A DNA stretch of 64,000 bases from Rhodocyclales bacterium (lineage in GTDB: Bacteria > Pseudomonadota > Gammaproteobacteria > Burkholderiales > Rhodocyclaceae): positions 35,063-99,062 of the forward strand of contig JAYTVW010000161.1 in assembly GCA_043743785.1 (NCBI GenBank), given 5' to 3'. A program made the position numbers and the translations under genes. This document shows, in pieces, positions 34,768 to 53,225 of this stretch (positions within the stretch are counted from its first letter, which is position 1; each line of letters begins with the position of its first letter). Under the pieces are notes generated by a model. The model was not told the origin of the DNA. It was given only the letters and a program-made list of their open reading frames with translations, and made no database searches.

Positions 34768-36218
34768 TCCCAGCCCCCCCCCAACGCCTTGATCAACCCC
34801 ACGCTTGCCGCCATGCGGCGGGCGCGCAGGGCGCTGGCGGTGCTTTCCGCCCCCAGGGCGGCGGCCTGGGCCGTCACCACATTGAGATAGCTGACGACGC
34901 CGGCCTTGTACTGGTTGGTGGCCAGTTCCAGGGATTTCTTCGCTGCCTGCAAGGCCTCGTCCTGCACTGACGCTTCCCGCTCCAGGATACGCAAGGCCGC
35001 CAGGTTGTCTTCCACGTCCGAGAGTGCGGCCAGCACCGTCTGCCGGTAGCTGGCCACCGTGCCTGCCCAGGCCGCCATGGCCTGGTCCTGCTTCGCGCTC
35101 CTCAAGCCGCCGTCGAAAACCGTCTGGGCCAGGGCCGGACCGAAGGACCAGAAGCGGCTGGGGGCCGAGATCCAACCCACCAGCGCCGAGGACTGCCAGC
35201 CGCCGTTGGCGGAGAGGCTCAGGTCCGGAAAGAAGGCCGCCTTGGCCACGCCGATCTGGGCGTTGGCCGCCGCTACCCGCCGTTCCGCCGCAGCCACATC
35301 CGGGCGCCGTTCCAGCAGCGTCGAGGGCAGGCCGACGGGGATGGCCGGCGGCGGCGCCGTGAGCAGGGGCATGGGCGCAAGAGCAAAGGTGGACGGGGCT
35401 TGCCCCACCAAGAGGGCGATGGCGTGTTCCATCTGGGCACGTTGCACGCCTACATCGAGAGCCTGGGCCTGGGTGCTCTTCAACTGGGTTTGGGCCTGGG
35501 CCACGTCGGCGGCAGCGGCGACGCCGGCCCGGTAGCGGTTCTGCGTCAGCTCCAGGGATTTGGCGTAGCCCGCCACCGTGTCGTCCAGCAACTTCTGTTG
35601 GGCATCCAGGGCGCGCAAGGCGTACCAGTCCTGGGCCAGGGTCGCCTGGAGGGACAGCTTTGTCGCCGCCAGGTCCGCCGCGCTGGCCTCCACCCCCGCC
35701 GCCGCCGCCTCGACAGCACGGCGCACGCCGCCCCACAGGTCCGTTTCCCAACTGGCTTGCAGGGACAGGCTGTGGCTGGTGGCCACGCCGCTGGACGACG
35801 ACGTACGGCTGGACGCCTCGGAACGTATCGACGAGGCGTTGGCGCCCACGCTGGGGAACTGGCCGGCCCTTGCCTGGGCTGAGAGGGCCACCGAAGCCCG
35901 GTACTGGGCTTCCGCGAGACGCAGGTTCTGGTTCGACACCGCCACCCGCTCTTCCAGGGCATTCAGGCCCTCGTCACCGAAAACTTGCCACCACTTGCCC
36001 CGGGGCAAGGCATCCGCCGGTACCGCCGGCTTCCAGCCGACCGCTTCCTTGAACGCCGCCGGCACCTCGCTCGTCGGCTTCACGTAATCGGGGCCGACGG
36101 TGCAGCCGGCCAGCGAAAGCAATAAAGCCAAATTAAACGCCGAGGCGCCGAGGCGCCGAGGAAGGCATGAGAACGACGAATCTTGGCAATCGTCCACGAC
36201 CGCAGATATGTTGTCCAT
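34764..36218 (-). CDS. RND efflux outer-membrane lipoprotein (NodT/OprM family)
   Basis: Lipobox LLLSLAGC, TolC-like repeats and a C-terminal ALGGGWE. The start is uncertain because the 5' end lies inside a repeat element. The TAG stop lies in a REP. Confidence 0.85.
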   Translation of the reverse strand: MDNISAVVDDCQDSSFSCLPRRLGASAFNLALLLSLAGCTVGPDYVKPTSEVPAAFKEAVGWKPAVPADALPRGKWWQVFGDEGLNALEERVAVSNQNLRLAEAQYRASVALSAQARAGQFPSVGANASSIRSEASSRTSSSSGVATSHSLSLQASWETDLWGGVRRAVEAAAAGVEASAADLAATKLSLQATLAQDWYALRALDAQQKLLDDTVAGYAKSLELTQNRYRAGVAAAADVAQAQTQLKSTQAQALDVGVQRAQMEHAIALLVGQAPSTFALAPMPLLTAPPPAIPVGLPSTLLERRPDVAAAERRVAAANAQIGVAKAAFFPDLSLSANGGWQSSALVGWISAPSRFWSFGPALAQTVFDGGLRSAKQDQAMAAWAGTVASYRQTVLAALSDVEDNLAALRILEREASVQDEALQAAKKSLELATNQYKAGVVSYLNVVTAQAAALGAESTASALRARRMAASVGLIKALGGGWE

Positions 36219-36255
36219 CGAGGTTTTCTCCGCGCCTCGGCGCCTCGGCGTTTCA
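36135..36255. repeat. octamer-armed inverted-repeat element (family A), copy 1
   Basis: AAACGCCGAGGCGCCGAGGCGCCGAGG ... CTCCGCGCCTCGGCGCCTCGGCGTTTCAA around a ~65-nt loop. Fills the mdtC-OMP spacer. Confidence 0.85.
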
Positions 36256-36265
36256 ATACAGACTT

Positions 36266-39200
36266 TCATATTCCGTTCTCCACCGGTTCCTGCACGGGGC
36301 CAGCCTTCTTGCCGCGGGCAAGCCACAGGCGGAAGCGGTCCATGTAGAGATAAACCACCGGGGTGGTGTAGAGGGTCAGGAGCTGGCTCACCGCCAGGCC
36401 ACCGACGATGGAAATGCCCAAGGGTTGGCGCAGCTCCGAGCCTTCGCCACCCCCCAGAGCCAGGGGCAGGGCGCCCAGCATGGCCGCCAGGGTGGTCATC
36501 ATGATGGGCCGGAAACGCAGCAGACAGGCCTGGCGGATGGCCTCCCGGGGGGGCAGGCCCTGGCTGCGCTCCGCCTCCAGGGCGAAGTCGATCATCATGA
36601 TGGCGTTTTTCTTGACGATACCGATGAGGAGCAGCACGCCGATCATGGCCATGACGGAGAACTCACTGCCGAAGGCCATCAGGGCCAAGAGCGCCCCCAC
36701 CCCCGCCGAGGGCAGGGTGGACAAGATAGTGATGGGGTGGATGGTGCTCTCGTAGAGCACGCCCAGCACCAGGTAGAGCGTCACCAGAGCCGTCAGGATC
36801 AGGATGGGCTGGCTGGCAAGGGACTGCTGGAAGGCCTTGGCCGTGCCCTGGAAGCTGCCCTGCACGGTAGACGGCGCCCCCACCTGGGCCATGGCGCCCT
36901 GGATGAGGCGGGTAGCGTCCGAGAGGGAGGTGCCAGGCACCAGGTTGAAGGAAATCGTCGAGGCGGCGAACTGGCCCTGGTGATTCACCGACAGGGACTG
37001 GCTGGCCGGGCCGAAGCTCGCCACCGCCGACAGGGGCACCTGGGTCGGCAGCGTGCCGGCGGCACCGGGCACGCTCAGCCACAGCTTGGACAGGGAATCC
37101 GCGTTCTGCCAGTAGCGGGGCGCCGCCTCCATGACCACGTGGTACTGGTTGAGGGCCGCGTAAATGGTGGAGGCCTGGCGCTGGCCGTAGGCGTCATTCA
37201 AGGTGGCATCCACCAGCCGGGGCGACACCCTCAGGCGGGCGGCGGTGTCCCGGTCAATGGTCACAAAGGTGGACTGGCCCTTGTCCTGCTGGTCCGTATT
37301 CACGTCCGCCAGTTGGGGCAGGTCGGAAAGAGCCTTTCGCACCTTCGGCTCCCAAGTGCGCAGTTCCGTCAGGTCGTCCGCCTGCAGGGTGAATTGCCAC
37401 TGGGCATTGCTGGCCCGCCCGCCCATGCGGATATCCTGGACCGGCTGCAGGAACAGGTTGGCCCCCGGCTCCTTCGAGAGCTTGCCGCGCAGGCGGTTGA
37501 TGACCTGGTCCGCCGACACCTGGCGTTCGCGCAGGGGCTTCAGGGCGATGAACATCATGCCGGTATTCTTCTGACCGCCGCCGGTGAAGCCCACCACGTT
37601 ATCCACCGCCGGATCCTGGCGCACGATTTCCATGAAAGAGGTGAGTTTGCCGCGCATGGCCTGGAAGGAAATGCCCTGGTCCGCCTGGATGTTGCCGGTA
37701 AGCCGCCCTGTGTCCTGCTGGGGGAAAAAGCCCTTGGGCACCACGGCGTAGAGATAGAAGTTGAGTCCCACGGTGAAGAGCAGAATCAGCATGATGAGGG
37801 GCCGGTGATCCAGAGCCCAGCCCAGGCTCCTGCCATAGCCGGCCTGCAAGCGGGCAAAGCCCTTTTCGGTCCACCGGGAAAAGCCCCCCCATCGATTACG
37901 CGGAGCATCGCGACGCTCGACGCTCCCCTCTCCCCCCGGGAGAGGGGCGGGGGGTGAGGGATCTGACTTCCGAATCGGTTTCAGCCAGCGGGCACAGAGC
38001 ATGGGCGTGGCGGTGAGGGACACCACCAGGGAAATCAGGATGGCCGAGGACAGCACCACGGCGAATTCCCGGAACAGCCGCCCCAGGATGCCCCCCATGA
38101 ACAGGATGGGAATGAACACCGCCACCAGGGACACGCTCATGGACAGCACGGTGAAGCCCACTTCCCGCGCCCCCTTGAGGGCAGCGTCGAGGGGCGTTTC
38201 CCCTGCTTCGATGTGCCGCATGATGTTTTCCAGCACCACGATGGCGTCGTCCACCACGAAGCCGGTGGCCACGGTCAAGGCCATGAGGGACAGGTTGTCC
38301 AGGCTGTAGCCGCACAGGTACATGACGGCGAAGGTGCCCCCCAGGGACACGGGCACCGCCACGGCGGGAATCAGGGTGGCGGGCCCGTTGCCGAGAAACA
38401 GGAACACCACCAGGATCACCAGGCCGAAGGAAATCATCAGACTGCGTTCCACTTCCCGCAGGGACGCCCGAATGGTGGTGGTACGCTCCACGGCCACGTT
38501 CACGTCGATGGAACCCGGAATGGAGGCCTTGAGGGCCGGCAGCAGCGCCTTCACCCGCTCCACGGTTTCGATGATGTTGGCGCCGGGCTGGCGGTTGATG
38601 ATGACCAACACGGAGGGCTGGGCGTTGGAGAGGCCGGCGTTACGCAGGTCCTCCACCGAATCCACCACTTCCTCGGAGACATCCGCGAGGCGCACGGCGG
38701 CGCCGTTCCTGTAGGAAATAATCAGGGGCAGGTATTCGGCGGCGGTGCGGGCCTGGTCATTGGCGGTGATCTGCCAGTGCTTGTCACCCTCCTCCAGGTC
38801 GCCCTTGGGGCGGTTGGCATTGGCAGCGGCCAGGGCCGTGCGCACGTCCTCCAGGCCGATGCCGTACTTGTGCAGGGCCAGGGGATTCAATTCCACCCGC
38901 ACGGCGGGCAGGGAACTGCCCCCCACGGACACCTGGCCCACGCCTTCGATCTGGGCCAGCTTCTGGGCCAGGATGGTGGAGGCGGCGTCATAGATGCGCC
39001 CCTGGCTGAGCGTCGGCGAGGTCAAGGCCAGGATCATCACCGGTGCATCCGCTGGATTCACCTTGCGGTAGGTGGGATTGCCCGGCATGCCGGTGGGCAG
39101 GAGACTCCTGGCGGCGGCGATGGCGCCCTGCACATCCCGGGCCGCACCGTTAATGTCCCGGTCCAGGTCGAATTGCAGGGTAATGCGAGTGTTGCCCAGG

Positions 39201-39454
39201 GAGCTGGAGGACGTGATCTCCGTGATGCCGGCAATGCGCCCCAGGGATCGCTCCAGGGGCGTGGCCACCGTGGCCGCCATGGTCTCCGGACTGGCGCCGG
39301 GGAGCGACGCCTGCACCGAGATGGTGGGGAAATCCACCTGGGGCAGGGGTGACACGGGCAGCAACTGAAAGCCCAACAAGCCCGCCAGAAAAATCGCCAG
39401 CGTCAGCAAGGTCGTCGCCACCGGCCGGTGGATGAAGGGCGCGGAGAGGTTCAT
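36266..39454 (-). CDS. mdtC: RND multidrug efflux permease (MdtC-like)
   Basis: ATG 39454: [18 protein letters not shown]. 12-TM AcrB/MdtC architecture. Second of two tandem RND permeases. Contains an in-frame repeat insertion near 37.9 kb. Confidence 0.9.
37900..37971. repeat. family B element inside the mdtC coding sequence
   Basis: CCCCTCTCCCCCCGGGAGAGGGG (37925-37947) followed by CGGGGGGTGAGGG, alignable with the 11.2 kb copy. Read in frame as [22 protein letters not shown]. Confidence 0.75.
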
Positions 39455-39488
39455 GCCGCAGCCATCCTTGAACCCGAAAAACAAAAGG

Positions 39489-39609
39489 CTTCACCGCAAA
39501 GGCGCAGAGGACGCAAAGTCTCGCAAAGGAAAACCAAAACAAGGCCAGGAAAAGCCTTGCTCTTGCAGTTCTTCGCGGCCCTTTGCGCCTTTGCGCCTTT
39601 GCAGTGAGG
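39489..39609. repeat. octamer-armed inverted-repeat element (family A), copy 2, CAAAGG variant
   Basis: TTCACCGCAAAGGCGCAGAGGACGCAAAG ... CTTTGCGCCTTTGCGCCTTTGCAGTGAGG. Fills the mdtB-mdtC spacer. Confidence 0.8.
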
Positions 39610-39620
39610 TTTTTCGGCCT

Positions 39621-42600
39621 TCATTCTTCCTTCCCCCCCCGAAAGCGCCGGGCCAGGCGGTCGAAGGCCAGGTAGATGACGGGGGTGGTGAACAGGGTCA
39701 GGGCCTGGGACACCAGGAGGCCGCCCACCATGGTGATGCCCAGGGGGTGACGCAGTTCGGAACCCACGCCGTTGCCCAGCATCAGCGGCAGGGCGCCCAG
39801 CAGGGCCGCCAGGGTCGTCATCATGATGGGGCGGAAACGCAGGAGGCAGGCCTGGTGGATGGCTTCCCGGGGCGACATCCCCAGGTTCCTCTCCGCGTCC
39901 AGGGCGAAGTCGATCATCATGATGGCGTTCTTCTTGACGATGCCGATCAGGAGAATGATGCCGATGATGCCGATGATGCCCAGGTCGTTGCCGGAAACCA
40001 TCAGGGCCAGCAGCGCCCCCACGCCGGCGGAGGGCAGGGTGGACAGGATGGTGATGGGATGGATGTAGCTCTCGTAGAGCACCCCCAGCACGATGTACAT
40101 GCTCACCACCGCCGCCAGAATCAGCAGTAACTGGTTGTCGAGGGAGGCCCGGAAGGCGGCGGCTGCGCCCTGGAAGCGGGTCTGCAGGCTGGCGGGCATG
40201 CCGATTTCCGCTTCCGCCGCCTCAATGGCCTTGACCGCCGCCCCCAGGGAGGCCCCCGGGGCCAGGTTGAAAGACAGGGTCGCCGAAGGGAACTGGCCCT
40301 GGTGATTCACCACCAGGGCTGCCGGCCGCTCTTCCACATGCACCAGGGCCGACAGAGGCACCTGGCCGCCGCTGGCGGTGGTGAGGCGCAGGTTGTCAAT
40401 GGCAGACAGGCCTTTCCTGAATTCCGGCTTCACTTCCAGCACCACCCGGTACTGGTTGGACTGGGTGAAGATGGTGGACACCAGGCGCTGGCCGAAGGCG
40501 TCGTAGAGGGCGTTGGAAATGGCCGCCGGGGTGACGCCTAAGCGCCCGGCGGTATCCCGGTCAATGGAGATATAGGCCTGCAGGCCCTGGTCCATCAAGT
40601 CGCTGGCCACTTCCCGCAGTTCCGGCACTTTGGCCAGCCGCTCCACCAGTTTCGGCACCCACAGGGCCAGTTCCACGGGATTCGCGTCTTCCACCGAGAA
40701 CTGGTACTGGGTGCGGCTGACCCGGTCCTCAATGGTCAGATCCTGGATAGGCTGCATGAACAGGGTCACACCCGGGGTGGCTGCCAATTTATCCTGCAGC
40801 CGCGCCATGACCACCTGCACGCTGCCCCGCTCTTCCCTGGGCTTCAGGTTGATGAGCAGGCGCCCGCTGTTCAAGGTGGTGTTCACCCCATCCACGCCGA
40901 TGAAGGACGACAGGCTGTCCACCCCCGGATCTTTCAAGACCACCGCCGCCACGGCCTGCTGGCGTTCCGACATGGCGGCAAAGGATATGGACTGGGGCGC
41001 CTCGGTGATGCCCTGGATCACCCCCGTGTCCTGCAGCGGGAAGAAGCCCTTGGGCACATAGACGTAGAGCAGCACCGTCAGCAAAAGCGTGCCGACGGCC
41101 ACCATCAAGGTGGCGGTCTGGTGATTCAGCACGCGAATCAGCAGGCGGTCGTAGCCGGCAATGACGCGCTCGATGAAGGCACCGCTGGCGTGGTAGAAGC
41201 GGCCCTGCTTTTCTTCCGGCACATGGGTGAGCAGGCGCGCGCAGAGCATGGGCGTGAGGGTCAGGGACACCACGGCGGAAATCAGGATGGCCACCGCCAG
41301 GGTGATGGCGAATTCCCGGAACAGCCGCCCCACCACGTCCCCCATGAACAACAGGGGAATCAGCACGGCGATCAGGGAAATGGTCAGGGAAATGATGGTG
41401 AAGCCGATCTGCTTGGCCCCCTTGAGGGCCGCCTGCATGGGTGGATCACCGGCCTCCAGGTAGCGAGCGATGTTCTCGATCATCACGATGGCGTCGTCCA
41501 CCACGAAACCGGTGGCAATGGTCATGGCCATCAGGGTCAGGTTATTGATGGAGAAACCCGCCAGATACATGACGCCAAAGGTGCCCACCAGCGAAAGCGG
41601 CACCGCCACGCTGGGAATAAGCGTGGCCGGCAGGTTCCGGAGGAACAGGAAGATCACCATCACCACCAGCACCACGGCGAGGAAAAGTTCCACCTGCACG
41701 TCGTTCACCGAGGCCCGGATGGTCACGGTGCGGTCGGTCAGGGGCGTCACCTCAATGGAACCCGGCAGGGTGGTACGCAACTGGGGCAGGAGCTTCTGGA
41801 TGCGGTCTACCACCTCGATGACATTGGCGCCGGGCTGGCGCTGGATGTTGAGGATGACGGCGGCGGACTCGTTGGCCCAGGCGGCGAGGCGCACGTTCTC
41901 CGCGTCCTCGATGACATCGGCCACGTCGAGAAGGCGAATGGGGGCGCCGTTTTTATAGGCGATGATGACTTTGCGGTAGTCCTCGGCAGAGCGGATCTGG
42001 TCATTGGCGTCCAGGGTGGAAGCCCGGGTCGGGCCGTCGAAACTGCCCTTGGCAAGATTGACGTTGGCGTTGCCCAAAGCCGTGCGCAGATCCTCCAGGC
42101 TCATGCCGTAGGCCGACAGAGCCTTGGGATTGGCCTGCACCCGCACGGCGGGACGCTGGCCGCCGCTGATGCTGACCAGCCCGACGCCGGGCAGTTGGGA
42201 AATCTTCTGGGCCAGGCGCGTGTCGGCGAAGTCCTCCACCTTGGACAGGGGCAGGGTCTTCGAAGTGAGGGCCAGGGCCATGATGGGGGCGTCCGCCGGA
42301 TTCACCTTGCTGTAGATCGGCGGCATGGGCAGATCCGTGGGCAGATAGGTGCCGGAAGCATTGATGGCCGCCTGCACCTGCTGCTCCGCCACGTCCAGGC
42401 TCAGAGCCAGGGAGAACTGCAGGGTGATGACGGAAGCCCCGCCAGAACTGGTGGACGACATCTGGGACAGCCCGGGCATCTGGCCGAACTGGCGCTCCAG
42501 GGGCGCGGTAATGCTGGACGTAACCACGTCCGGGCTGGCACCGGGATAGAGGGTGGTGACCTGAATGGTGGGGTAATCCACCTGGGGCAGGGCCGAGATG

Positions 42601-42698
42601 GGTAAGAGCCGATAGGCCACCAGCCCGGACAGCAGGATGGCCAGCATCAGCAACGTCGTCGCCACCGGCCGCAGGATGAACAGGCGGGAGGGGTTCAC
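39621..42698 (-). CDS. mdtB: RND multidrug efflux permease (MdtB-like)
   Basis: GTG start, [18 protein letters not shown]. 1025 aa with AcrB-family architecture. Follows the MFP gene. Confidence 0.9.
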
Positions 42699-42726
42699 CA
42701 GACGATCCCTCTTTGCAAAAAGCTAT

Positions 42727-42879
42727 TTGAAACGCCGAGGCGCAGAGGCGCCGAGAACACCAAAGAAACATCCGCGGGAGCCCTTCGTAGGTCGGGTTTT
42801 AACCCGACATTCAATCTCGCTGTCGGGTTAAAACCAGACCTACGATTTTCCTCGGCGCCTCGGCGCCTCGGCGTTTCAA
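42727..42879. repeat. octamer-armed inverted-repeat element (family A), copy 3, with a nested GTAG-REP pair
   Basis: TTGAAACGCCGAGGCGCAGAGGCGCCGAG ... CTCGGCGCCTCGGCGCCTCGGCGTTTCAA. Fills the mdtA-mdtB spacer. Confidence 0.85.
42787..42843. repeat. GTAG-type REP pair, family 1, nested in family-A element copy 3
   Basis: GTAGGTCGGGTTTTAACCCGACA ... TGTCGGGTTAAAACCAGACCTAC. Confidence 0.8.
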
Positions 42880-42894
42880 TCAGTTTTTCCGGCT

Positions 42895-44262
42895 TCATTC
42901 CCCGCCCCGGCGCTTTTTCCATTCGGCGGGTTTGCCATCAGCGGAGGCAGCATTCGCGGGGGCTGCATTCGTGGGGCCGGCTTCAGCCGGCCTTGGGCCT
43001 GCAGGCTTGCCCTCCGCAGGCTTACCCTCTCCCGGCTTGCCGCCCTTCCTGCGTTCACCGCCGCCTGCGGCCTTGCCGGCGCCCGGCATCTGGGGTTCCA
43101 CCTTGGCACCTTCCCGCAGCTTGTCGGCGCCGTCGGCCACTACGGATTCGCCCGGGGCCAGGCCTTCTTCCACGGCGGTGGTTTCCCCCTCCGCCGGGCC
43201 CAGCTTTACCGGCCGCACCGTCACGCTCTTGTCGTCCTTGATGACGTAGACGAAGACATTGTTCTGTTTGCCACGCTGGATGGCGGAGGTCGGCACCAGT
43301 ACCACATCCCTCTTCACGTCCAGGGCCAGGCGCAGGTTCACGAACTGGTTGGGAAAGAGGGCGGCATCGTCGTTGGCGAACTTGGCCTTGAGCTTGACCG
43401 TGCCGGTAGCCGCATCGATCTGGCTGTCCACCGCCAGCAGGCTACCCTCGGCCAGCTTCACTTTCTGCTCCCGATCCCAGGCCGTCACCGCCAGTTTCTC
43501 CCCGGCGGCAAGTTTCTTCATGACGGCCGGAATGCTGTCCTCCGCCAGGCTGAACAGGGCGGCGATGGGCTGGGTCTGGGCGATGACCACCAGACCGTTG
43601 GCGTCCGAGGCATGCACAATGTTACCGGCGTCCACCTGGCGCAGGCCCGCCCGGCCGGCAGCCGGTGCCGTGACGCGCGCATAGGAAAGCTGCAGGCGGG
43701 CATTGTCCACCTGGCCCTGGTCCACCTTGACGGTGCCCTCGTACTGGCGCACCAGGGCCTCCTGGGTATCCAGCTGTTGTTTGGGGATGGAATCCTGGGC
43801 CACCAGGTTGCGGTAGCGTTCCTGATCCAGTTTCGCGTTCTTCAGCAAGGCCTGGTCCCGGGCGAACTGGCCTTCTGCCTGGGTCAGCAAGACCTGGAAG
43901 GGCCGCGCATCGATCTCCGCCAGCAAATCGCCGGCCTTCACCACCTGGCCCTCCTTGAAATGCACTTTCATCAACTGGCCGTCCACCCGGTATTTCACGG
44001 TGACACTGGACAAGGGCGTCACGTTGCCCAGGCCATTGAGGAAGACCGGCATGTCGCCCTTCTTCGCCGTGGCCGCCAGCACCGGCGTGGGCCGCCCGCC
44101 GCCCTTCTTGCCGGCGGCGGCCTCATCGGTAGCGCCCCCCCGTCCGGCCACAAACCAGTAGCCCGCGCCAATCACGGCCGCCACGGCCAGCCAGACCGAG
44201 GGGCGGCGCATCAGCGGCGGGATGCGGGAAACCCCAGCGTGCTTAACAGGTATCTTGTCCAT
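42895..44262 (-). CDS. mdtA: RND efflux periplasmic adaptor (MdtA-like membrane fusion protein)
   Basis: ATG 44262 (MDKIPVKH). TM anchor, lipoyl/beta-barrel MFP core ([11 protein letters not shown] ... [13 protein letters not shown]). Gly/Lys/Pro-rich C-terminal tail. Confidence 0.88.
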
Positions 44263-44466
44263 GGGGAATCGTGTACGCAGCGACGTAAAAGAGCGGGCAA
44301 TGATAATGAAAATCCCGGCGGCGCCAGGGGCGATTTTTGTATCCCAATGTACCCCGCAGTGCACAAACCAGCCCTTGCCGGCCTCCGGCGACGCCTGGCA
44401 CCGGCTGGGGCTTCAGGATCATTTACACTTTCTTGATGATTATCACGCCCCGGATACTTGTAACGC

Positions 44467-47145: not shown

Positions 47146-47217
47146 GGCCGTTATAATCTCGGCCTTGATGCAACCCCGCGCGGGGCAGCAAGGCCCGCGC
47201 GCAACACCGGCGAACAC

Positions 47218-48558
47218 ATGACCAAGAAAGTCTATATCCGCACCTTCGGCTGCCAGATGAACGAGTACGACTCGGACAAGATGGTGGACGTTCTCGTCCA
47301 GCAAGCCGGAGCCGACGGCCTGGAAAAGACGGACCGCCCCGAAGACGCGGACATCATCCTGTTCAACACCTGTTCCATCCGGGAAAAAGCCCAGGAAAAG
47401 GTCTTCCACGACCTGGGCCGGGTACGCACCCTGAAACTCGCCAAGCCAAGCCTGATCATCGGCGTCGGCGGCTGCGTGGCCAGCCAGGAAGGGGCCGCCA
47501 TCATTGGCCGGGCGCCCTATGTGGACGTGGTCTTCGGGCCGCAAACCCTGCACCGGCTGCCGGAACTCATCCAGCAGCGGCGGGCCACGGGCAAGGCCCA
47601 GGTAGATGTGTCCTTCCCGGAAATCGAGAAGTTCGACAACATGCCGCCAGCCAAGGTGGAGGGGGCCACGGCCTTCGTTTCCATCATGGAAGGCTGTTCC
47701 AAGTTCTGCACTTACTGCATCGTGCCCTTCACCCGAGGTGACGAAGTCTCCCGCCCCCTGGCGGACATCCTCACCGAAATCGCCGGACTAGCCCAGCAGG
47801 GCGTCAAGGAAATCACCCTCTTGGGCCAGAACGTGAATGCCTGGCGCGGTCTCATGGACGACGGCAGTACCGCCGACCTGGCCTTCTTGCTGGAAATCGC
47901 GGCCGACGTGCCGGGGATCGAGCGCCTGCGCTTCACCACTTCCCACCCACGGGAATTCAACGCCCGGCTGGTGGACGTGTATACCCGGGTGCCCAAGCTG
48001 GTGAGCCACCTGCACCTGCCGGTGCAGTCAGGCTCTGACCGGGTGCTGGCGGCCATGAAGCGCGGCTACACCGTGCTGGAATACAAGAGCCTCGTGCGGA
48101 AAATCCGCGCCGCCCGGCCCGACATCTGCCTGTCCTCCGACTTCATCGTCGGCTTCCCCGGCGAGACCGAGGCCGACTTCGAGGCCACCATGAAGCTCAT
48201 CGAGGATGTGAGGTTCGACGCCTCCTTCAGCTTCATTTTCAGCCCCCGCCCGGGCACTCCGGCGGCGGACATGGCGGACGACACGCCAGCGGAAGTGAAA
48301 TCCGCCCGCCTCAAGCGCCTGCAGACGCGCATCGAGGAACTGGCCCAGGAAGTGAACCAGTCCATGGTGGGCAGCATCCAGCGGGTGCTGGTGGAAGGCC
48401 ACGCCAAGAAGGATGCCCTGGAACTGGCGGGCCGCACCGACAACAACCGCATCGTGAATTTCGCAGGGAATGCGCGCCTGCTGCACCAGTTCGTGGACGT
48501 ACGCATCACCTCCTCCCTGCCCCACTCCCTGCGCGGCGAGATCCTGGTAAAGGAATGA
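47218..48558 (+). CDS. miaB: tRNA-2-methylthio-N6-dimethylallyladenosine synthase
   Basis: [17 protein letters not shown]-terminus and the radical-SAM motif [12 protein letters not shown]-terminal TRAM domain. Confidence 0.93.
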
Positions 48559-48559
48559 C

Positions 48560-48690
48560 TTTGAAACGCCGAGGCGCCGAGGCGCCGAGAAACCCGAGAA
48601 CAATGCCGGTGCTGGCATCCCCGCATCCCGAGTCCGCGCATACGGGGCAGCCCTTGTCTTTCCTCTGCGCCTCTGCGCCTCGGCGTTTGA
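48560..48690. repeat. octamer-armed inverted-repeat element (family A), copy 4
   Basis: TTTGAAACGCCGAGGCGCCGAGGCGCCGAG ... CCTCTGCGCCTCTGCGCCTCGGCGTTTGA. Lies in the miaB-phoH spacer, starting 2 nt after the miaB stop. Confidence 0.85.
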
Positions 48691-48730
48691 GAACAGCTTT
48701 TCAACAGAACTCACTCCCGTCGCAGGCGCA

Positions 48731-49693
48731 ATGAACCCCCAATTCCTCCAACTCACCCTCACCCCTCTGGACAATGCCCAGCTGGCCACCCTGTGCGGGC
48801 CCCTGGACGAAAACCTGCGGCAGATCGAGATGGCCTTCGACGTGGAAATCGCCCGCCGGGGAGAGAACTTCAGCGTCCATGGCACCCTGAACCAGGCCCG
48901 GGGCGCCGCCAATGCCCTGGAGCACTTCTACGCCAAGGCGCAAAGCGGCCTGTCCATTGAGGATATCCAGCTGGGGCTGGTGGAACTGCTATCCACCCGC
49001 CAAGCGGCGGCGCCGGCCCCCGTGCTCCTCACCCGCAAGTCGGACCTGCACGGCCGCACGCCCAACCAGACTCAGTATCTGCGCCAGATCCAGGCCCATG
49101 ACATTACCTTCGGCATCGGCCCGGCGGGCACCGGCAAGACCTACCTGGCGGTGGCCTCGGCGGTGGACGCCTTCGAGCGGGACCAGGTGAGCCGCATCGT
49201 GCTGACCCGGCCGGCCGTCGAAGCTGGCGAACGCCTGGGCTTTTTGCCCGGCGACCTGTCGCAAAAGGTGGATCCCTACCTGCGGCCCCTCTACGACGCC
49301 CTCTACGACCTGATGGGTTTCGACAAGGTGGCGAAGATGTTCGAGCGCCAGGCCATCGAGGTGGCACCCCTGGCCTACATGCGCGGACGCACCCTGAACC
49401 ACGCCTTCATCATCCTGGACGAGGCCCAGAACACCACGCCGGAGCAGATGAAAATGTTCCTGACCCGCATCGGCATCGGCGCCAAGGCCGTCGTGACCGG
49501 CGACGTCACCCAGATCGACCTACCGAAGAACCAGAAGAGCGGCCTCATCGAGGCCCGGCGCATCCTGGCGGAAGTTCGCGGCATCGCCTTCACCGACTTC
49601 GACGCCGCCGACGTGGTGCGCCACCCCCTGGTGGCCCGCATCGTGTCGGCCTACGAGAAGGAAGAAGCAGCCCGCAACCCAAGGCCGGCTTGA
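48731..49693 (+). CDS. phoH: PhoH-family ATPase (YbeZ)
   Basis: Walker A GPAGTGKTYLAV. PhoH-like sequence. Conserved position between miaB and ybeY. Confidence 0.9.
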   Translation: MNPQFLQLTLTPLDNAQLATLCGPLDENLRQIEMAFDVEIARRGENFSVHGTLNQARGAANALEHFYAKAQSGLSIEDIQLGLVELLSTRQAAAPAPVLLTRKSDLHGRTPNQTQYLRQIQAHDITFGIGPAGTGKTYLAVASAVDAFERDQVSRIVLTRPAVEAGERLGFLPGDLSQKVDPYLRPLYDALYDLMGFDKVAKMFERQAIEVAPLAYMRGRTLNHAFIILDEAQNTTPEQMKMFLTRIGIGAKAVVTGDVTQIDLPKNQKSGLIEARRILAEVRGIAFTDFDAADVVRHPLVARIVSAYEKEEAARNPRPA

Positions 49694-49700
49694 ATCCGGC

Positions 49701-49724
49701 CTGACAACTGACAATTGACAACTG
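49701..49724 (+). repeat. tandem heptamer (CTGACAA)3 directly upstream of the ybeY start
   Basis: CTGACAA CTGACAA TTGACAA CTG then ATG 49725. Preceded by the hairpin AGGCCGG-N7-CCGGCCT spanning the phoH stop. Confidence 0.7.
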
Positions 49725-50180
49725 ATGCCCACCAAACTCTCCCTCTCCGTGCAATACGCCTGTAACGATGATGCCTTACCCTCCCGACCCCAGGTTCGGC
49801 GCTGGGTGACCCGGGCGCTGAAGGCTGCGGAACCCGCCACGGCCCTGGTGACGGTGCGCTTCGTCGATGCGGAGGAAGGCCAGCAACTCAACCGGGATTA
49901 CCGGGAGAAGGACTACGCCACCAACGTGCTGACCTTCGCCTACCTGCCAGGTCCAGAGCTGGCCGGCGATCTGGCCTTGTGCCTGCCGGTGGTTTTGAAG
50001 GAAGCGGCGGAGCAGGGCAAGACGCCGGAAGCCCATTTCGCCCATCTGGTGGTGCATGGTATTCTCCACCTCCAAGGTTTCGACCATCTCGAAGATGAAC
50101 AGGCCGAAGTCATGGAAGCCGCCGAAAAGGAACTCCTGGCGAAGATGGGCTTTGCGGACCCCTATGCGGCAGAACGGTAA
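49725..50180 (+). CDS. ybeY: rRNA maturation endoribonuclease YbeY
   Basis: 151 aa. [15 protein letters not shown] zinc-binding motif. Confidence 0.9.
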
Positions 50181-50183
50181 ATT

Positions 50184-50249
50184 GTGAGGTGTTAGGAATG
50201 AGGAGTCCGGGGTCGTTCCCCCCTCACTCCTCACCCCTCACCCCTCACG
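50184..50249. repeat. heptad-repeat hairpin, GTGAGG/CCTCAC variant
   Basis: GTGAGGTGTTAGGAATGAGGAG - loop - CTCACTCCTCACCCCTCACCCCTCAC. Lies immediately after the ybeY stop. Confidence 0.75.
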
Positions 50250-50259
50250 CATTACAAAT

Positions 50260-51102
50260 ATGGACCTACCCAGTAGTCGACCTTCCCTTCTTGAACGCCT
50301 CTCCTCCCTGTTGACCCGGGAGCCTGAAGACCGGGAGCAACTTGTCGAGTTGCTTCACTCCGCCTTCGAACGCAATCTCCTCGACGCCGACGCCCTCTCC
50401 ATCATCGAGGGGGCCATGCAGGTTTCCGACATGTCGGTGCGGGACATCATGGTGCCCCGAGCCCAGATGGACACCCTGGACGTGGACTCGCCCCTGGACG
50501 CCATCGTCAAGCGGGTGGTGGACACCACCCACTCACGCTTCCCCGTCATTGGCGACAACAAGGACGACGTGATCGGCATCCTGCTGGCCAAGGACATGCT
50601 GAAACTGTTCGCTGGCGAGGATCTGAGCCTGCGGGACATGCTGCGGCCGGCGGTGTTCATCCCCGAATCCAAGCGCCTGAACGTATTGCTGCGGGAATTC
50701 CGCATCAGCCGCAACCACATGGCCATGGTGGTGGACGAGTACGGCGGCGTGGCAGGCCTGGTGACCATCGAGGATGTACTGGAGCAGATCGTCGGCGACA
50801 TCGAGGACGAGTACGACTGGGACGAGGACAGCGACAACATCCGGCCGGACCAGAACGGGCGCTTCCGCGTGAAGGCCACCACGGAGATCGAGGACTTCAA
50901 CGAAGCCTTTTCGACCACCTTCGACGACGAGGAATACGACACCGTGGGCGGCCTCATCATCCGCAAACTCGGGCGCCTGCCCAAGCGCGGCGAAATCGTA
51001 ATCCTGGACAACATGCGCTTCCAGGTCCTCCGCGCCGACAGCCGGCGGGTGCATACCTTGCTGGTGGAGCCGCGCCCCCCTGTCCCGGCGGGGTCGGATT
51101 GA
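50260..51102 (+). CDS. corC: CBS-pair / CorC_HlyC transporter-associated protein (CorC/YbeX)
   Basis: 280 aa. Two CBS repeats plus a C-terminal transporter-associated domain. Conserved position before lnt. Confidence 0.9.
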   Translation: MDLPSSRPSLLERLSSLLTREPEDREQLVELLHSAFERNLLDADALSIIEGAMQVSDMSVRDIMVPRAQMDTLDVDSPLDAIVKRVVDTTHSRFPVIGDNKDDVIGILLAKDMLKLFAGEDLSLRDMLRPAVFIPESKRLNVLLREFRISRNHMAMVVDEYGGVAGLVTIEDVLEQIVGDIEDEYDWDEDSDNIRPDQNGRFRVKATTEIEDFNEAFSTTFDDEEYDTVGGLIIRKLGRLPKRGEIVILDNMRFQVLRADSRRVHTLLVEPRPPVPAGSD

Positions 51103-51120
51103 GCCCGGTTTCAAAAGCAT

Positions 51121-51265
51121 TTTCACCGCAGAGACGCAGAGGCGCAGAGGAAAGCCAAAGCTGTCGTAGGTCGGGTTTCAACCCGACAGGCACGCGGGCA
51201 TGGACTTGTCGGGCTGAAGCCGGACCTACCGTTCTTCTCTGCGCCTCTGCGCCTCTGCGTTTCAA
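51121..51265. repeat. octamer-armed inverted-repeat element (family A), copy 5, CAGAGG variant with a nested GTAG-REP pair
   Basis: TTTCACCGCAGAGACGCAGAGGCGCAGAGG ... CTCTGCGCCTCTGCGCCTCTGCGTTTCAA. Lies in the corC-lnt spacer. Confidence 0.85.
51166..51229. repeat. GTAG-type REP pair, family 1, nested in family-A element copy 5
   Basis: GTAGGTCGGGTTTCAACCCGACAG ... TTGTCGGGCTGAAGCCGGACCTAC. Confidence 0.8.
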
Positions 51266-51280
51266 TCCGGCTTTTCAAGC

Positions 51281-52861
51281 ATGAAGTCCTCGGCCCATTT
51301 CGCCCGGGCCTTCGGCCTGGGAGTTCTGTCGGTGGGCGGGTTTGCCCCTTTCGGGCTTATTCCCCTCACGCCCCTGGCCCTGGCCGGCGTGTTTTTCCTC
51401 TGGCGCAGGCACCCGGAAAAAGCGCCCCTGGCGGGATGGAGCTACGGCTTCGGCCTGTTCCTGGCCGGCGTTTCCTGGATCTATGTGAGCCTGCACCAGT
51501 TCGGCGGCATGGCGGCGCCCCTGTCGCTGCTAGCCGTGGCACTGTTCGCCGCCGTCATGGCCCTCTACCCTCTAATTGCGGGCTGGCTGTTCCGCCGCTT
51601 CCAGGGCACAAGCTGGCTGACGGACGCCCTGTTGGCCGCAGCCTGCTGGACCCTGATGGAGTGGGTGCGGGGCTGGATGTTCACCGGCTTTCCCTGGCTG
51701 GTGGCCGGCTATTCCCAGACGCCCCCCAGCCCCCTGGCCGGCTTCGCCCCCCTCTTCGGCGTGTACGGCATCACCCTGGCGCTGACGCTTGCCGCAGCGC
51801 TCATCGCCTTCGCGTGGGGCGAACGAGCCCATCTGCGCACCAGCGGCGGCTTCCTCGGCTTATTGCTGCTGGCGGGCGCCCTGCTGCTGCCCATTGCCTG
51901 GACCACACCCCGGCCCACGGCGATTGAAGTGAGTCTGCTGCAGGGCAACATCGAGCAAAGCCTGAAATGGCGCCCGGAACTCCTGGATCTATCCCTCAAC
52001 ACTTACCAGAAACTGGCCCGGGAGAATCCGGCGCGTATCCTGGTGCTGCCGGAAACCGCCCTGCCCATCGCCCTGGAACGCCTGCCCCTGTCCTATCTGG
52101 AGACCCTGCGGGGCGGCAAGGGAGCGGGCTCGACTTTACAAGACGCCCCTGAGCATGAAAGTCGTGCCCGTTCTCCCTCCCCCCCCCGCCCCTCTCCCCT
52201 GAAGGGCGAGGGGAGCGTCGTGAGTCGCTCCGCGACTTTCGTAGAACGGGACGTGATCATCGGCGCCATCACTTTCGACCAGGCGGGCAACCCGTATAAC
52301 GCCGCCGTGAGTTTCGGCGCCGCCCCCAGCCAGCGCTACGCCAAGTCCCACCTGGTGGCCTTCGGCGAATTCACGCCGCCCCTCTTCAAATGGACCCTGG
52401 ACTTGCTGTCCATCCCCATGTCGGACCTGTCCCGGGGCACCCTGAACCAGCCGCCCCTGGCCCTGGCCGGGGAAAAGATCGCCGTGAATATCTGCTACGA
52501 GGATGTCTTCGGCGAGGAAATCATACGCGCCCTGCCGGAGGCGACCATCCTGCTGAACCTCTCCAACACCGCCTGGTTCGGGGACTCCTTCGCCCAGCCC
52601 CAACACCTGCAGATTTCCCGCATGCGCGCCCTGGAAACCGGCCGCCCCATGCTGCGCGCCACCAACACCGGCATGACGGCAGCAATCGCCCCTGATGGCA
52701 CCGTCCTGGGTGTCCTGCCCCCCTTCACCGTCGGCGCCCTGAAAGTAACGGTGCACGGCTATGAGGGCCTCACCCCCTACGCCCGCTGGGGCAACTGGCC
52801 GGCCATCCTGGCCTGCCTGGGGATGCTGGGCTACGCCGTCTGGCGCAAACGCAAGGCGTAG
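51281..52861 (+). CDS. lnt: apolipoprotein N-acyltransferase
   Basis: N-terminal TM region plus a nitrilase-like domain with LPETA, KSHLVAFGE and NICYED (catalytic Glu/Lys/Cys contexts). Contains an in-frame 84-nt repeat element at 52157-52240. Confidence 0.9.
   Translation: MKSSAHFARAFGLGVLSVGGFAPFGLIPLTPLALAGVFFLWRRHPEKAPLAGWSYGFGLFLAGVSWIYVSLHQFGGMAAPLSLLAVALFAAVMALYPLIAGWLFRRFQGTSWLTDALLAAACWTLMEWVRGWMFTGFPWLVAGYSQTPPSPLAGFAPLFGVYGITLALTLAAALIAFAWGERAHLRTSGGFLGLLLLAGALLLPIAWTTPRPTAIEVSLLQGNIEQSLKWRPELLDLSLNTYQKLARENPARILVLPETALPIALERLPLSYLETLRGGKGAGSTLQDAPEHESRARSPSPPRPSPLKGEGSVVSRSATFVERDVIIGAITFDQAGNPYNAAVSFGAAPSQRYAKSHLVAFGEFTPPLFKWTLDLLSIPMSDLSRGTLNQPPLALAGEKIAVNICYEDVFGEEIIRALPEATILLNLSNTAWFGDSFAQPQHLQISRMRALETGRPMLRATNTGMTAAIAPDGTVLGVLPPFTVGALKVTVHGYEGLTPYARWGNWPAILACLGMLGYAVWRKRKA
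52157..52240. repeat. family B element inside the lnt coding sequence
   Basis: GAAAGTCG...CCCCTCTCCCCTGAAGGGCGAGGGGAGCGTCGTGAGTCGCTCCGCGACTTTC, the reverse orientation of the 11.2 kb copy. 84 nt, starting on a codon boundary. Confidence 0.8.
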
Positions 52862-52887
52862 TGCCTTCGCCCCACATTGGAACCTCC

Positions 52888-53103
52888 ATGGACCCCGCCA
52901 GCCTCGAACTGCTCGTCACGAGAACCATGCCCTACGGCAAGTACAAGGGCCGCCTGATCGCGGATCTGCCGGGGAACTATTTGAACTGGTTCGCCCGGGA
53001 AGGTTTTCCGTCGGGGGAACTGGGGCGCTTGCTGGCCCTCATGCAGGAGTTGGACCACAACGGCCTCGGGCACCTGCTGACGCCGCTGAGAAAAGGCAAT
53101 TGA
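52888..53103 (+). CDS. DUF3820-like small protein
   Basis: MPYGKYKGRLIADLPGNYLNWF motif. ATG 52888 preferred. GTG 52861, overlapping the lnt stop, is an alternative. Confidence 0.6.
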   Translation: MDPASLELLVTRTMPYGKYKGRLIADLPGNYLNWFAREGFPSGELGRLLALMQELDHNGLGHLLTPLRKGN

Positions 53104-53104
53104 C

Positions 53105-53220
53105 TAAACGCCGAGACGCCGAGGAATACTTGAGAAACCAATCAGCCTCACCCATTTGGTGAGCCCACGATTGTTGCCATATCTTTGTTTTCTCGGCGCC
53201 TCTGCGCCTCGGCGTTTCAA
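53105..53220. repeat. octamer-armed inverted-repeat element (family A), copy 6
   Basis: TAAACGCCGAGACGCCGAGG ... CTCGGCGCCTCTGCGCCTCGGCGTTTCAA. Starts 2 nt after the DUF3820 gene stop. Confidence 0.8.
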
Positions 53221-53225
53221 ACAGT

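Follow-up and report, generated by a model that had tools for sequence, protein, structure and literature searches.

The window analysed here, a stretch of 64,000 nucleotides from a Rhodocyclaceae genome, contains six inverted-repeat elements with arms of tandem octamers within about 17 kb, and the locus raises the question of what these elements are and why the two arms of each copy match. In the first-pass annotation the arms were described as co-varying within each copy, which was taken to fit either selection for a long hairpin or homogenisation within the element. The presence of the six elements is confirmed: the double-octamer pattern (consensus in the window arms CGC[C/A][G/A]AG[G/A], two to three tandem units per arm) has 22 matches in the window, compared with 0.12 expected from shuffles. 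The elements are about 150-185 nt long rather than 115-155 nt, as about 22 nt of element sequence lie outside the octamers at either end, and they fold into very stable hairpins (-72 kcal/mol, z = -4.3, for 48545-48707).

Six octamer-armed elements in the window

Three elements are associated with efflux genes. Element 1 (36116-36272; octamer-armed inverted repeat 36135-36253, arms 36138-36161 and 36227-36250) is of type I (CGCCGAGG), has a unique core and sits four codons into an ORF for an outer-membrane efflux lipoprotein on the minus strand, which is uninterrupted across the whole element. Element 2 (39473-39625; inverted repeat 39484-39614), located between two RND permease genes, is of type III (CGCAAAGG, cap TTCAC); its arms span 39495-39510, with degenerate units in addition, and 39580-39603. 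Element 3 (42711-42895; inverted repeat 42718-42888, arms 42733-42756 and 42850-42873), again of type I, separates the membrane-fusion gene from the first RND gene; its core harbors a nested GTAG-type REP doublet (42785-42845), and the orthologous spacer of the congener G001 contains the REP pair only.

Element 4 (48545-48707; inverted repeat 48564-48688) has mixed arms, with CCGAGG three times on the left and CCGAGG, CAGAGG, CAGAGG on the right, and is found at the junction of miaB (stop at 48558) and phoH (start at 48731). Element 5 (51105-51281; inverted repeat 51127-51263, arms 51127-51150 and 51236-51259), of type II (CGCAGAGG), fills the gap from the stop of corC (TGA, 51100-51102) to the start of lnt (ATG, 51281) and also has a GTAG-type REP doublet nested in its core (51166-51229); in G001 the site is unoccupied, and the corC stop and the lnt start overlap there as GTGA. 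Element 6 (53087-53236; inverted repeat 53106-53217, arms 53109-53124 and 53191-53214), between lnt and a convergent GGDEF gene, is of type I and combines a TTGACTAAA (‘A’) end with a GTTTGAAA (‘B’) end and a core of the TCACC-N4-GGTGA master family.

Some details of the initial description apply to a part of the copies. The cap TTGAAA...TTTCAA is present at some ends, whereas other ends have CTAAA, TTAAA or TTCAC. The loops, regarded as mutually unrelated, include the two cores with nested REP pairs (at 42.7 and 51.2 kb) and the 53.1-kb core, which is common to at least 38 copies. The same octamer variant is indeed used on both arms at 39.5 and 51.2 kb, but not in three other copies: at octamer position 4, the left and right arms have C,C,C vs C,A,A in the 48.5-kb copy, C,A,C vs C,C,C in the 42.7-kb copy, and C,C vs C,A,C in the 53.1-kb copy.

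A genome-wide repeat family

The genome-wide census that had been proposed for these elements has shown that they belong to a dispersed repeat family that numbers at least 330 copies and accounts for about 1% of the 4.6-Mb genome. It includes 283 well-paired elements and about 28 in which one arm is weak, besides about 24 arms located at contig ends and about 25 solo arms. Within 400 nt, no arm pairs in the minus-then-plus arrangement were found. The full element is about 155-165 bp long. It starts with a 22-nt tip (CCTTRAAAAGGCAGTTGACTAAA or CCTAAAAAACTCTGTTTGAAA), continues with three CGCMGAGR octamers and a variable core, and ends with the octamers and tip in inverted form. Each terminal inverted repeat thus spans about 46 bp, an A-rich tip starting with CCT being followed by the three tandem octamers; tip, cap and octamers are kept at both ends, and the end logos show conservation for about 18-22 nt outside the octamers. 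The tips probably bring their own TAA/TGA stops, and the elements are gene-less, with no element-specific ORF.

Three subfamilies can be distinguished (cap A with CCGAGG; cap C with CAGAGG; cap C with CAAAGG), and both ends of one copy normally belong to the same one. The cores of most copies cannot be aligned, 198 loops forming 150 clusters; the youngest subfamily has 38 copies. If one arm is intact, the partner arm is intact in about 90% of cases. The arms thus stay intact while the cores diverge, a pattern that is not expected if dead MITE copies decay neutrally.

Target-site duplications and mobility

In the youngest subfamily, 11 of the 38 copies are flanked by perfect 5-bp target duplications, compared with 0.73 expected, and eight further copies have duplications matching at four of five positions. 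The target is an AT-rich WTNAW pentamer, usually containing TGA, TAA, TCA or TTA. One nested insertion provides a filled and an empty site, CCCATGAT[CCTAAAA...TTTAAGG]ATGATTCACGC vs CCCATGATTCACGC, and a copy in an unrelated metagenome organism has ATCAA on both flanks, a perfect duplication. Outside the young lineage such duplications are not recognisable; about 20-25 of the 283 copies have one.

The family has most of the features by which MITEs are defined: short non-coding units, many copies, terminal inverted repeats, and a 5-bp duplication of fixed length and variable sequence. Because of the duplications, the filled/empty pair and the copy with a perfect duplication in an unrelated organism, the octamer-armed elements are probably MITE-like, that is, non-autonomous palindromic transposable elements that transpose.

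Gene context and distribution

The gene pairs around the copies are strongly biased (n = 184): 166 are co-directional, 12 convergent and 6 divergent, compared with a background of 67.5, 16 and 16%, respectively (p = 3e-10). Hence 90% of the copies lie between co-directional genes, where they fill the stop-to-start gap, also in conserved operons such as MFP-RND-RND-OMF and miaB-phoH-ybeY-corC-lnt (at the miaB/phoH and corC/lnt junctions). In 140 of the 166 co-directional cases the upstream stop is located in or at the tip, and the downstream start follows the last octamer at a median distance of 26 nt. The positions do not fit an intrinsic (bidirectional) terminator, given that only 12 of the 184 pairs are convergent (background 16%) and that copies reside inside MFP-RND-RND-OMF and between corC and lnt.

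Among relatives the distribution is very patchy: matches to the elements were found in 33 of 301 genomes of the bacterial family, with counts of 0 to 114 within one genus, and most relatives, even species of the same genera, have none. Across the phylum, matches are present in five of 400 other genomes. The arms were also identified in 91 viral-contig stretches and 91 metagenome stretches, and CGC-type arms occur in another proteobacterial class; the distribution spans several families. Of 26 element sites of the congener G001, 18 are empty in the genome studied here and eight are filled in both, compared with an expected occupancy of about 9%; the cores at the shared sites are unrelated.

The placement can be accommodated by the MITE-like reading. 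In a genome with 62% GC, AT-rich pentamers would concentrate at stop codons and stop/start overlaps, and insertions at other places would be purged by selection; the surviving copies may lie exactly between a stop and the next start because of these two effects. The duplication could also restore both the stop and the start, as suggested by the corC/lnt junction, which is GTGA when empty and TTGAG...ATGAA when filled. After insertion, a copy would be part of the operon mRNA and form a hairpin of about 60-70 kcal/mol there, which may affect the host, for example via RNase III processing, stabilisation of the mRNA or attenuation.

Concordance of the arms

The postulated arm-to-arm co-variation holds for the outermost octamer, which agrees between the arms of the 283 elements (C/C in 166, A/A in 86, about 30 discordant) and goes together with the cap base (AAA followed by CGCC vs AAC followed by CGCA). 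It does not hold for octamers 2 and 3, where agreement in the main type is below chance (0.549 vs a null of 0.631). The reason is the asymmetry of the master copy itself, which has CAC at one end and CCA at the other; C.U/A.G mismatches are present even in this copy. The apparent co-variation is subfamily identity, with no base-pair compensation, and the terminal repeats of a transposon subfamily would be expected to match at the two ends just as well. Selection for a long RNA hairpin is not supported either: sense and antisense RNAs fold about equally well (86 vs 77 elements, p about 0.1). With the discordant inner octamers, this symmetry and no Rfam match, a structured RNA family was rejected as well.

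It could still be argued that the hairpins are kept by the host, as RNA or as cruciform DNA (RNase III sites, stabilisers, attenuators or terminators), mobility being secondary. The stability of the folds (on average about -68 kcal/mol), the intact arms around cores that diverged until they could no longer be aligned, the precise placement in intercistronic gaps of conserved operons, and the excess of sites shared by the congeners in spite of unrelated cores are all consistent with this. We nevertheless consider it distinctly unlikely, since neither strand is preferred in folding and the orientation of the copies has no clear bias (41 vs 26), the inner octamers are discordant beyond chance, the elements are absent from most relatives, same-genus species included, and the congener lacks an element at most orthologous junctions; in addition, copies in operons with normally essential genes cannot be efficient terminators.

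If the elements are MITE-like, a transposase supplied in trans would recognise the tip and the octamer array at both ends, and the arms would match in type without a need for base-for-base pairing because the same enzyme reads both ends. As to the homogenisation within an element suggested initially, homogenisation between copies, rather than within one copy, is possible: at five of the eight sites occupied in both congeners, one or both arms are of the dominant arm type of the genome studied here.

Search for a transposase

The absence of a visible transposase, noted for the six copies, extends to the family. This assembly contains no multi-copy IS and, within the limited power of a draft, no long-range arm pair enclosing a transposase; nor do the 91 viral and 91 metagenome stretches, which as draft assemblies have limited power too, show an autonomous element whose ends match. 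The termini of the IS1380 family (e.g. ISEcp1) begin with CC, and its target duplications are AT-rich and 4-5 bp long, resembling the CCT... ends and the 5-bp WTNAW duplication of the octamer-armed elements. In the draft assemblies of carrier relatives, however, no matching ends were found beside IS1380-family genes, whose own ends are CCCGGAWATTTCA with a CTAG duplication and no octamers. An origin of the elements as IS1380-derived MITEs is not supported, as the agreement is limited to the generic CC start and the 4-5-bp duplication. Binding sites built of tandem 8-bp units would also be atypical for a transposase. Like the absence of an autonomous element, the restriction of recognisable duplications to the young lineage and the intact arms around divergent cores, this speaks against the MITE-like reading.

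Paired arrays in other bacteria

Arrays of the same architecture were described in Geobacter metallireducens by Aklujkar et al. 2009 as ‘predicted global regulator binding sites’ of classes 1-3 (PMC2700814). These are pairs of sites on opposite strands, each with 3-5 tandem hepta- or octanucleotides (GTTGCTYN, TCTCCGTS, MTYCTGA) at a variable distance, present in tens of copies in intergenic regions, also between genes of one pathway; they were interpreted as IHF/HU or regulator sites, and neither target duplication nor mobility was reported (PMC2700814). The architecture is identical, the Geobacter classes being defined by description only, whereas the unit sequences differ and the octamer family has hundreds of copies.

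The octamer arrays might likewise be binding sites of a nucleoid-associated protein or a global regulator, paired at gene junctions, as inverted pairs of tandem short units with variable spacing resemble operator arrays and the Geobacter authors read their own arrays in this way (PMC2700814). For the family studied here this is highly improbable: the target duplications, nested insertions, patchiness, and occurrence in phage contigs and unrelated organisms point to mobility, and the copies are positioned after stops inside operons and not at promoters, with only six of 184 gene pairs divergent.

A second comparison is offered by cassettes with PF05635 genes (‘23S rRNA IVS protein’) and rRNA intervening sequences, which have inverted 7-8-mer arrays as a long stem, are located at stop-to-start gaps of operons in the loci whose flanks were read, and are found in the same genome. 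They differ in having a gene of about 120 aa and other repeat units (GTGAGGG, CTCAGTCC, CGGGACT and GTGAGGT). Identity with such cassettes was rejected: 11 carrier genomes contain eight PF05635 loci, and CGCMGAGR arrays flank none of them.

Both systems could, with the octamer family, belong to a wider class of paired inverted 7-8-mer arrays at gene ends, moved or maintained by array-reading machinery of another kind than an ordinary IS transposase. In this genome and three other carriers (G226, G054 and G053), six PF05635 genes exceed the Pfam cut-off and have flanks available, and all of them lie between inverted 7-8-mer arrays; together with the three Geobacter classes and the CGC-type arms in another proteobacterial class, viral contigs and many metagenomes, this would fit such a class, and array-specific maintenance would account for intact arms with free cores. 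We judge it quite unlikely, because the PF05635 loci of the carriers use other units, the young lineage acts as a whole-unit transposon with tips beyond the arrays and a fixed 5-bp duplication, and the common architecture may be convergence. A bolder version, which also seems unlikely, would make the cap and the three-octamer array the recognition module of a pan-bacterial, phage-borne palindromic class that includes the PF05635 cassettes and the Geobacter sites, inserted at stop/start junctions by non-classical machinery that keeps the arms by concerted evolution or re-templating. If true, it would explain the perfect arms with randomised cores and the orthologous copies in two species with the arm type of their own genome.

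If instead the MITE-like reading holds, these elements constitute an undescribed and very successful MITE family with tandem-octamer terminal repeats, which has colonised the tightest spaces of a bacterial genome: stop/start junctions in operons, even those with normally essential genes (lnt, for example), have been left functional. The family would also provide a sequence-defined handle (tip, array, 5-bp WTNAW duplication and an active-looking master copy) on the octamer-array hairpins noted in Geobacter in 2009 and never explained, and it poses two questions: which enzyme moves the elements, and why do the arms resist decay? For annotation, the family explains contig breaks, spurious long ORFs across intergenic gaps and odd N-termini. 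The breaks of several contigs fall within young copies that are identical, and the signal peptide of the efflux lipoprotein is encoded by an arm of element 1.

Comparison with known repeat families

No published name was found for the family, in agreement with the first-pass annotation. A close likeness is to Correia/NEMIS elements of Neisseria and ERIC/IRU elements of enterobacteria, which are 100-170 bp long, have no ORF, carry terminal inverted repeats and reach hundreds of copies; they too are intergenic, often co-transcribed with their neighbours, fold as a whole into one hairpin and fall into internally varying subfamilies. Correia elements share with the octamer family a defined target duplication, and the involvement of RNase III or IHF is known for them. 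Correia, however, duplicates TA, whereas the octamer-armed family duplicates 5 bp (WTNAW), has three tandem octamers in its terminal inverted repeats, lies nearly always between a stop and the next start within co-directional pairs, and spans several families, a second proteobacterial class and viral contigs.

REP/BIME/REPIN-RAYT systems are similar in being abundant extragenic palindromes at gene 3’ ends, paired in inverted orientation, with patchy, lineage-specific families. The octamer elements had been described as not being GTAG-type REPs, and they are indeed much longer, have no GTAG head and make a 5-bp target duplication, while REPINs are not known to leave any. The GTAG REP doublets nested in two of the six window copies represent a separate family of the same genome.

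Six inverted-repeat elements in the window

A repeat search returned inverted-repeat pairs at all six places where the first-pass annotation had described such elements (elements 1–6, numbered by ascending coordinate), and the sequences read show arms of 2–3 tandem CGC[C/A][G/A]AG[G/A] units, in keeping with the tandem octamers it had reported. The double-octamer pattern CGCMRAGGCGCMRAGG (at most one mismatch) has 22 matches in the window versus 0.12 from shuffles, and all except one lie at 36.1–53.2 kb, inside the six elements; the six-copy observation is real and highly non-random. Other parts of the description needed amendment: the TTGAAA cap is present at some ends, but caps vary (TTGAAA, CTAAA, TTAAA or TTCAC); the loops, said to be unrelated, include two cores that have a nested GTAG-type REP doublet in common and one that belongs to a large shared family; and three of the six copies, rather than using the same octamer variant on both arms, have mixed C/A variants between them.

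Literature searches on the octamer strings found no papers, those combining Rhodocyclaceae with MITE or REP gave nothing relevant, an Rfam search of the 19.5-kb region returned just two sub-threshold matches to miRNA models, and BLASTN of a full element against a plasmid collection gave no match.

Genome-wide census and anatomy

The census covered the whole 4.6-Mb assembly (171 contigs, 62% GC). It yielded 527 strict arms, among which no minus-then-plus pair was found within 400 nt, and a median core length of 73 nt. With a one-mismatch seed, 283 paired elements were identified, beyond which there are ~28 elements with one weak arm; the unpaired arms comprise ~24 at contig ends and ~25 true solo arms. 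The paired copies alone occupy, tip to tip, ~1% of the genome. Reversed sequence is an invalid control for the degenerate arm pattern, since a reversed tandem repeat matches the pattern too. Several contigs break off within identical copies, a sign that amplification was recent.

A full element end has a tip followed by three CGCMGAGR octamers, inverted at the opposite end. In the detected arms, octamer positions 1–3 and 5–7 are 97–100% invariant, while position 4 is C (53%), A (38%) or G (7%) and position 8 is G (68%) or A (32%). Logos of the outer flanks are conserved for ~18–22 nt past the octamers and feature two end types, ‘A’ (CCTTRAAAAGGCAGTTGACTAAA) and ‘B’ (CCTAAAAAACTCTGTTTGAAA), many copies having one of each. 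The 38 near-full copies aligned from the youngest subfamily (the young lineage) have sharp boundaries at CCT...AGG and a conserved core with the tip TCACC-N4-GGTGA. Type-III copies (CAAAGG subfamily; cap TCAC, units CGCAAAGG/CGCGAAGG), such as those at C20:55694, C143:14547, C135:13716–14036 and C5:578, form a longer subfamily of their own with a conserved core (…AACGCAAAATGCCGCGAAGGAAAGCCAAAGCCCATGATTCACGCTG…) and frequently have one good arm only. Runs of 16–19 G at the start of contig C5, a contig end, and in the core of the element at C15:89914–90042 are probably sequencing or assembly artefacts.

Concordance of arms and divergence of cores

The first-pass annotation had proposed that the two arms co-vary, complementarity being kept. 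Taking the first three octamers of each arm, counted from the outside, in all of the 283 paired copies, we found that in unit 1, the outermost, position 4 is C/C in 166 copies, A/A in 86 and discordant in ~30, with the cap base tracking this concordance (AAA-CGCC versus AAC-CGCA); unit 2 gives C/A 67, C/C 61, A/C 54 and A/A 47, and unit 3 is mixed in much the same way. Among cap-A elements the overall arm agreement (0.549) is significantly below chance (permutation null 0.631 ± 0.015), because the two ends of the common form differ (CAC versus CCA). The concordance of unit 1 and the cap, combined with this asymmetry, indicates that the arms have a common subfamily label, not base-by-base compensation, and compensatory co-variation is unsupported past subfamily identity. 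About 8% of the copies are chimeric. When the 166 copies lying between co-directional genes were folded, the sense strand was not favoured (86 versus 77 more stable, p ~0.1), and orientation is only weakly biased (B>A 41, A>B 26).

Cores are mostly singletons (150 clusters from 198 loops), whereas for elements with one detectable arm the partner arm is intact ~90% of the time. Intact arms with diverged cores are at odds with neutral decay, because decay would erode both alike. The arms could be conserved by element-level selection for mobility, by gene conversion among ~330 copies with common ~46-bp ends, or by a host-level function of the stem; it is also possible that the contrast arises from instability focused on the centre of the palindrome.

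Evidence for transposition

The best-supported interpretation is that the family consists of MITE-like transposable palindromes whose terminal repeats are octamer arrays and whose insertion duplicates a 5-bp AT-rich target. In an offset scan, one specific pair of offsets gave direct repeats in 19 elements, versus a median of 1. In the young lineage, perfect 5-nt duplications at the aligned element boundaries flank 11 of the 38 copies, versus 0.73 expected (TTCAA, ATCAT, ATCAC, TTTAC, ATCAA, TTGAT, ATTAT and ATGAA among them), and eight more copies match at 4/5 positions. Since the duplicated sequence varies, these flanking repeats belong to the target rather than to the element. One copy is nested within a type-III element, and an intact paralogue of the host element represents the empty site: the sequence is CCCATGAT[CCTAAAA...TTTAAGG]ATGATTCACGC with the insertion and CCCATGATTCACGC without it. 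In another organism, represented by a metagenome contig with genes 65–75% identical to those of this genome, a young-lineage copy is 76–79% identical and has ATCAA on both flanks.

On metagenome contig L196 (860–900), a degenerate arm of a second element carries a young-lineage copy at its inner edge (TTTGAAACACCGAGGCGACGAGAAATCAA). This and the case on contig C135 show that elements land inside one another.

As had been noted at first reading, a transposase is not visible: no transposase-bearing copy was found in this assembly. The solo arms with their inward sequence did not reveal an autonomous partner, and neither did tips without octamers; the genome self-BLAST contained no multi-copy IS, and no long-range arm pairs enclose a transposase, the sole 1.1-kb pair (contig C110) having unlike arm types and a non-transposase ORF. 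The CC ends and 5-bp duplication had suggested a link to IS1380; it was rejected, as the IS1380-family transposases of carrier relatives have unrelated ends.

A low-GC block of ~3 kb with ATPase-like ORFs (C5:1100–4060) adjoins half-elements and is edged by repeated GGGGTCAGGTCT-type motifs; this may be a second kind of mobile element, with octamer elements as its targets or interrupted by it. The sequence GAAATG[C/T]GTTCGT[G/A]CAAGAC, shared or similar, comes after three solo arms, of which two are on C5 and one is on C125.

Location between stop and start codons

Flanking genes were assigned by a caller based on this genome’s codon usage. Co-directional gene pairs flank 166 elements (background 67.5%), convergent pairs 12 (16%) and divergent pairs 6 (16%), an arrangement that differs from the background with p = 3e-10. 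Upstream, the median distance from the end of the stop codon to the first octamer is 19 nt; the stop is inside the cap or tip in 97 of the 166 cases and at the tip edge in 43 more, and in some copies the cap’s own TGA or TAA serves as the stop; the first downstream start lies a median of 26 nt past the last octamer. With the stop in or at the tip and the start just past the octamers, the element itself constitutes the intergenic spacer. Within the window, elements 1–3 part the cistrons of an MFP-RND-RND-OMF efflux operon, and elements 4–6 flank miaB/phoH and corC/lnt/ (slashes mark elements). In the congener G001 (JAQTNA01, a Rhodocyclaceae MAG) the corC-lnt junction is without an element and reads GTGA, stop and start overlapping; here the element has TTGAG (stop) on its upstream side and ATGAA (start) on its downstream side. 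A 5-bp duplication of NTGAN would give just this outcome. According to the best-supported reading, the elements are tolerated almost only at stop/start junctions.

The tip AGG was considered as a source of Shine-Dalgarno sequences and dropped, AGG being there in 38 of 159 copies and any SD-like triplet in 67 of 159. A NodT-type efflux lipoprotein ORF (window 36116–36326, minus strand), whose start ATG overlaps the TGA of the RND gene, stays readable straight through element 1, the arm and tip of which encode the signal peptide’s n- and h-regions (…PRRLGASAFNLALLLSLAGC); in G001 the orthologous site has an element of different arm type and core that likewise encodes these regions (…LRLCASAVLLSFLTAC). 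A different ~85–105-nt repeat lies within the lnt ORF (window 52134–52240), with a reverse-complement copy in the second RND gene (37910–37961) and dozens of matches (80–92% identity) throughout G001; this appears to be a separate palindromic family that has entered coding sequence in frame.

Distribution and comparison with a congener

Among 60 relatives, only five other genomes have arms. In a family survey of 301 genomes, 33 had any match and ~15 had five or more, with extreme counts within genera (0, 114, 1 and 0 in one; 87, 0, 0, 2 and 39 in another), and in a phylum sample of 400 genomes five others matched, among them a different class with CAAAGG/CCAAGG variants. IMG/VR viral contigs have arms in 91 stretches, one of which lies between a stop codon and the following start in a phage-like gene block, and type-I (CCGAGG) arms were found in 91 metagenome stretches from many samples.

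Of 40 element-containing G001 regions, 26 had syntenic flanks in the genome studied here, where 18 of these sites are empty and eight occupied, a higher occupancy than the ~9% of junctions overall. At all eight common sites the cores are unrelated; the G001 copies are all type II (CAGAGG), and their counterparts are type II (three), type I (four) or have one arm of each type (one). Tip similarity of orthologous copies is not clearly above that of random pairs (ranks 25–241 of 283). The common sites are either old shared insertions, whose arms were converted to the dominant type of each genome, or hot spots hit independently.

Similar arrays in other contexts

Inverted arrays of GGCTGTAG/GGCTGAAG-type units, exactly 1065 nt apart, enclose the same 263-aa phage-like ORF on viral contigs L075 (1837–2955) and L130 (12710–13828); single genes are bracketed by arrays of the octamer type in phage genomes too.

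Clear genes of the ‘23S rRNA IVS protein’ family PF05635, at C156:22489–22793 and C63:6302–6589 in this genome and also in three other carriers (G226, G054 and G053), lie between arrays of other tandem 7–8-mers, which are inverted except on C63, where both sides have the same direction; those whose flanks were read are located in a stop-to-start gap. In this genome the arrays consist of GTGAGGGG (inverted; C156:22410–22850, loci L033/L034) or CTCAGTCC (same direction; C63:6190–6730, locus L030), and the C156 gene is frameshifted and occupies an intergenic gap within an operon. A link to PF05635 was rejected: the architecture in this genome is the same, yet no PF05635 cassette here or in the three carriers has CGCMGAGR arms. 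The sole published description of an element-like architecture found in our literature search is that of Geobacter metallireducens, whose paired hepta/octamer arrays were read by the authors as regulator-binding sites (PMC2700814).
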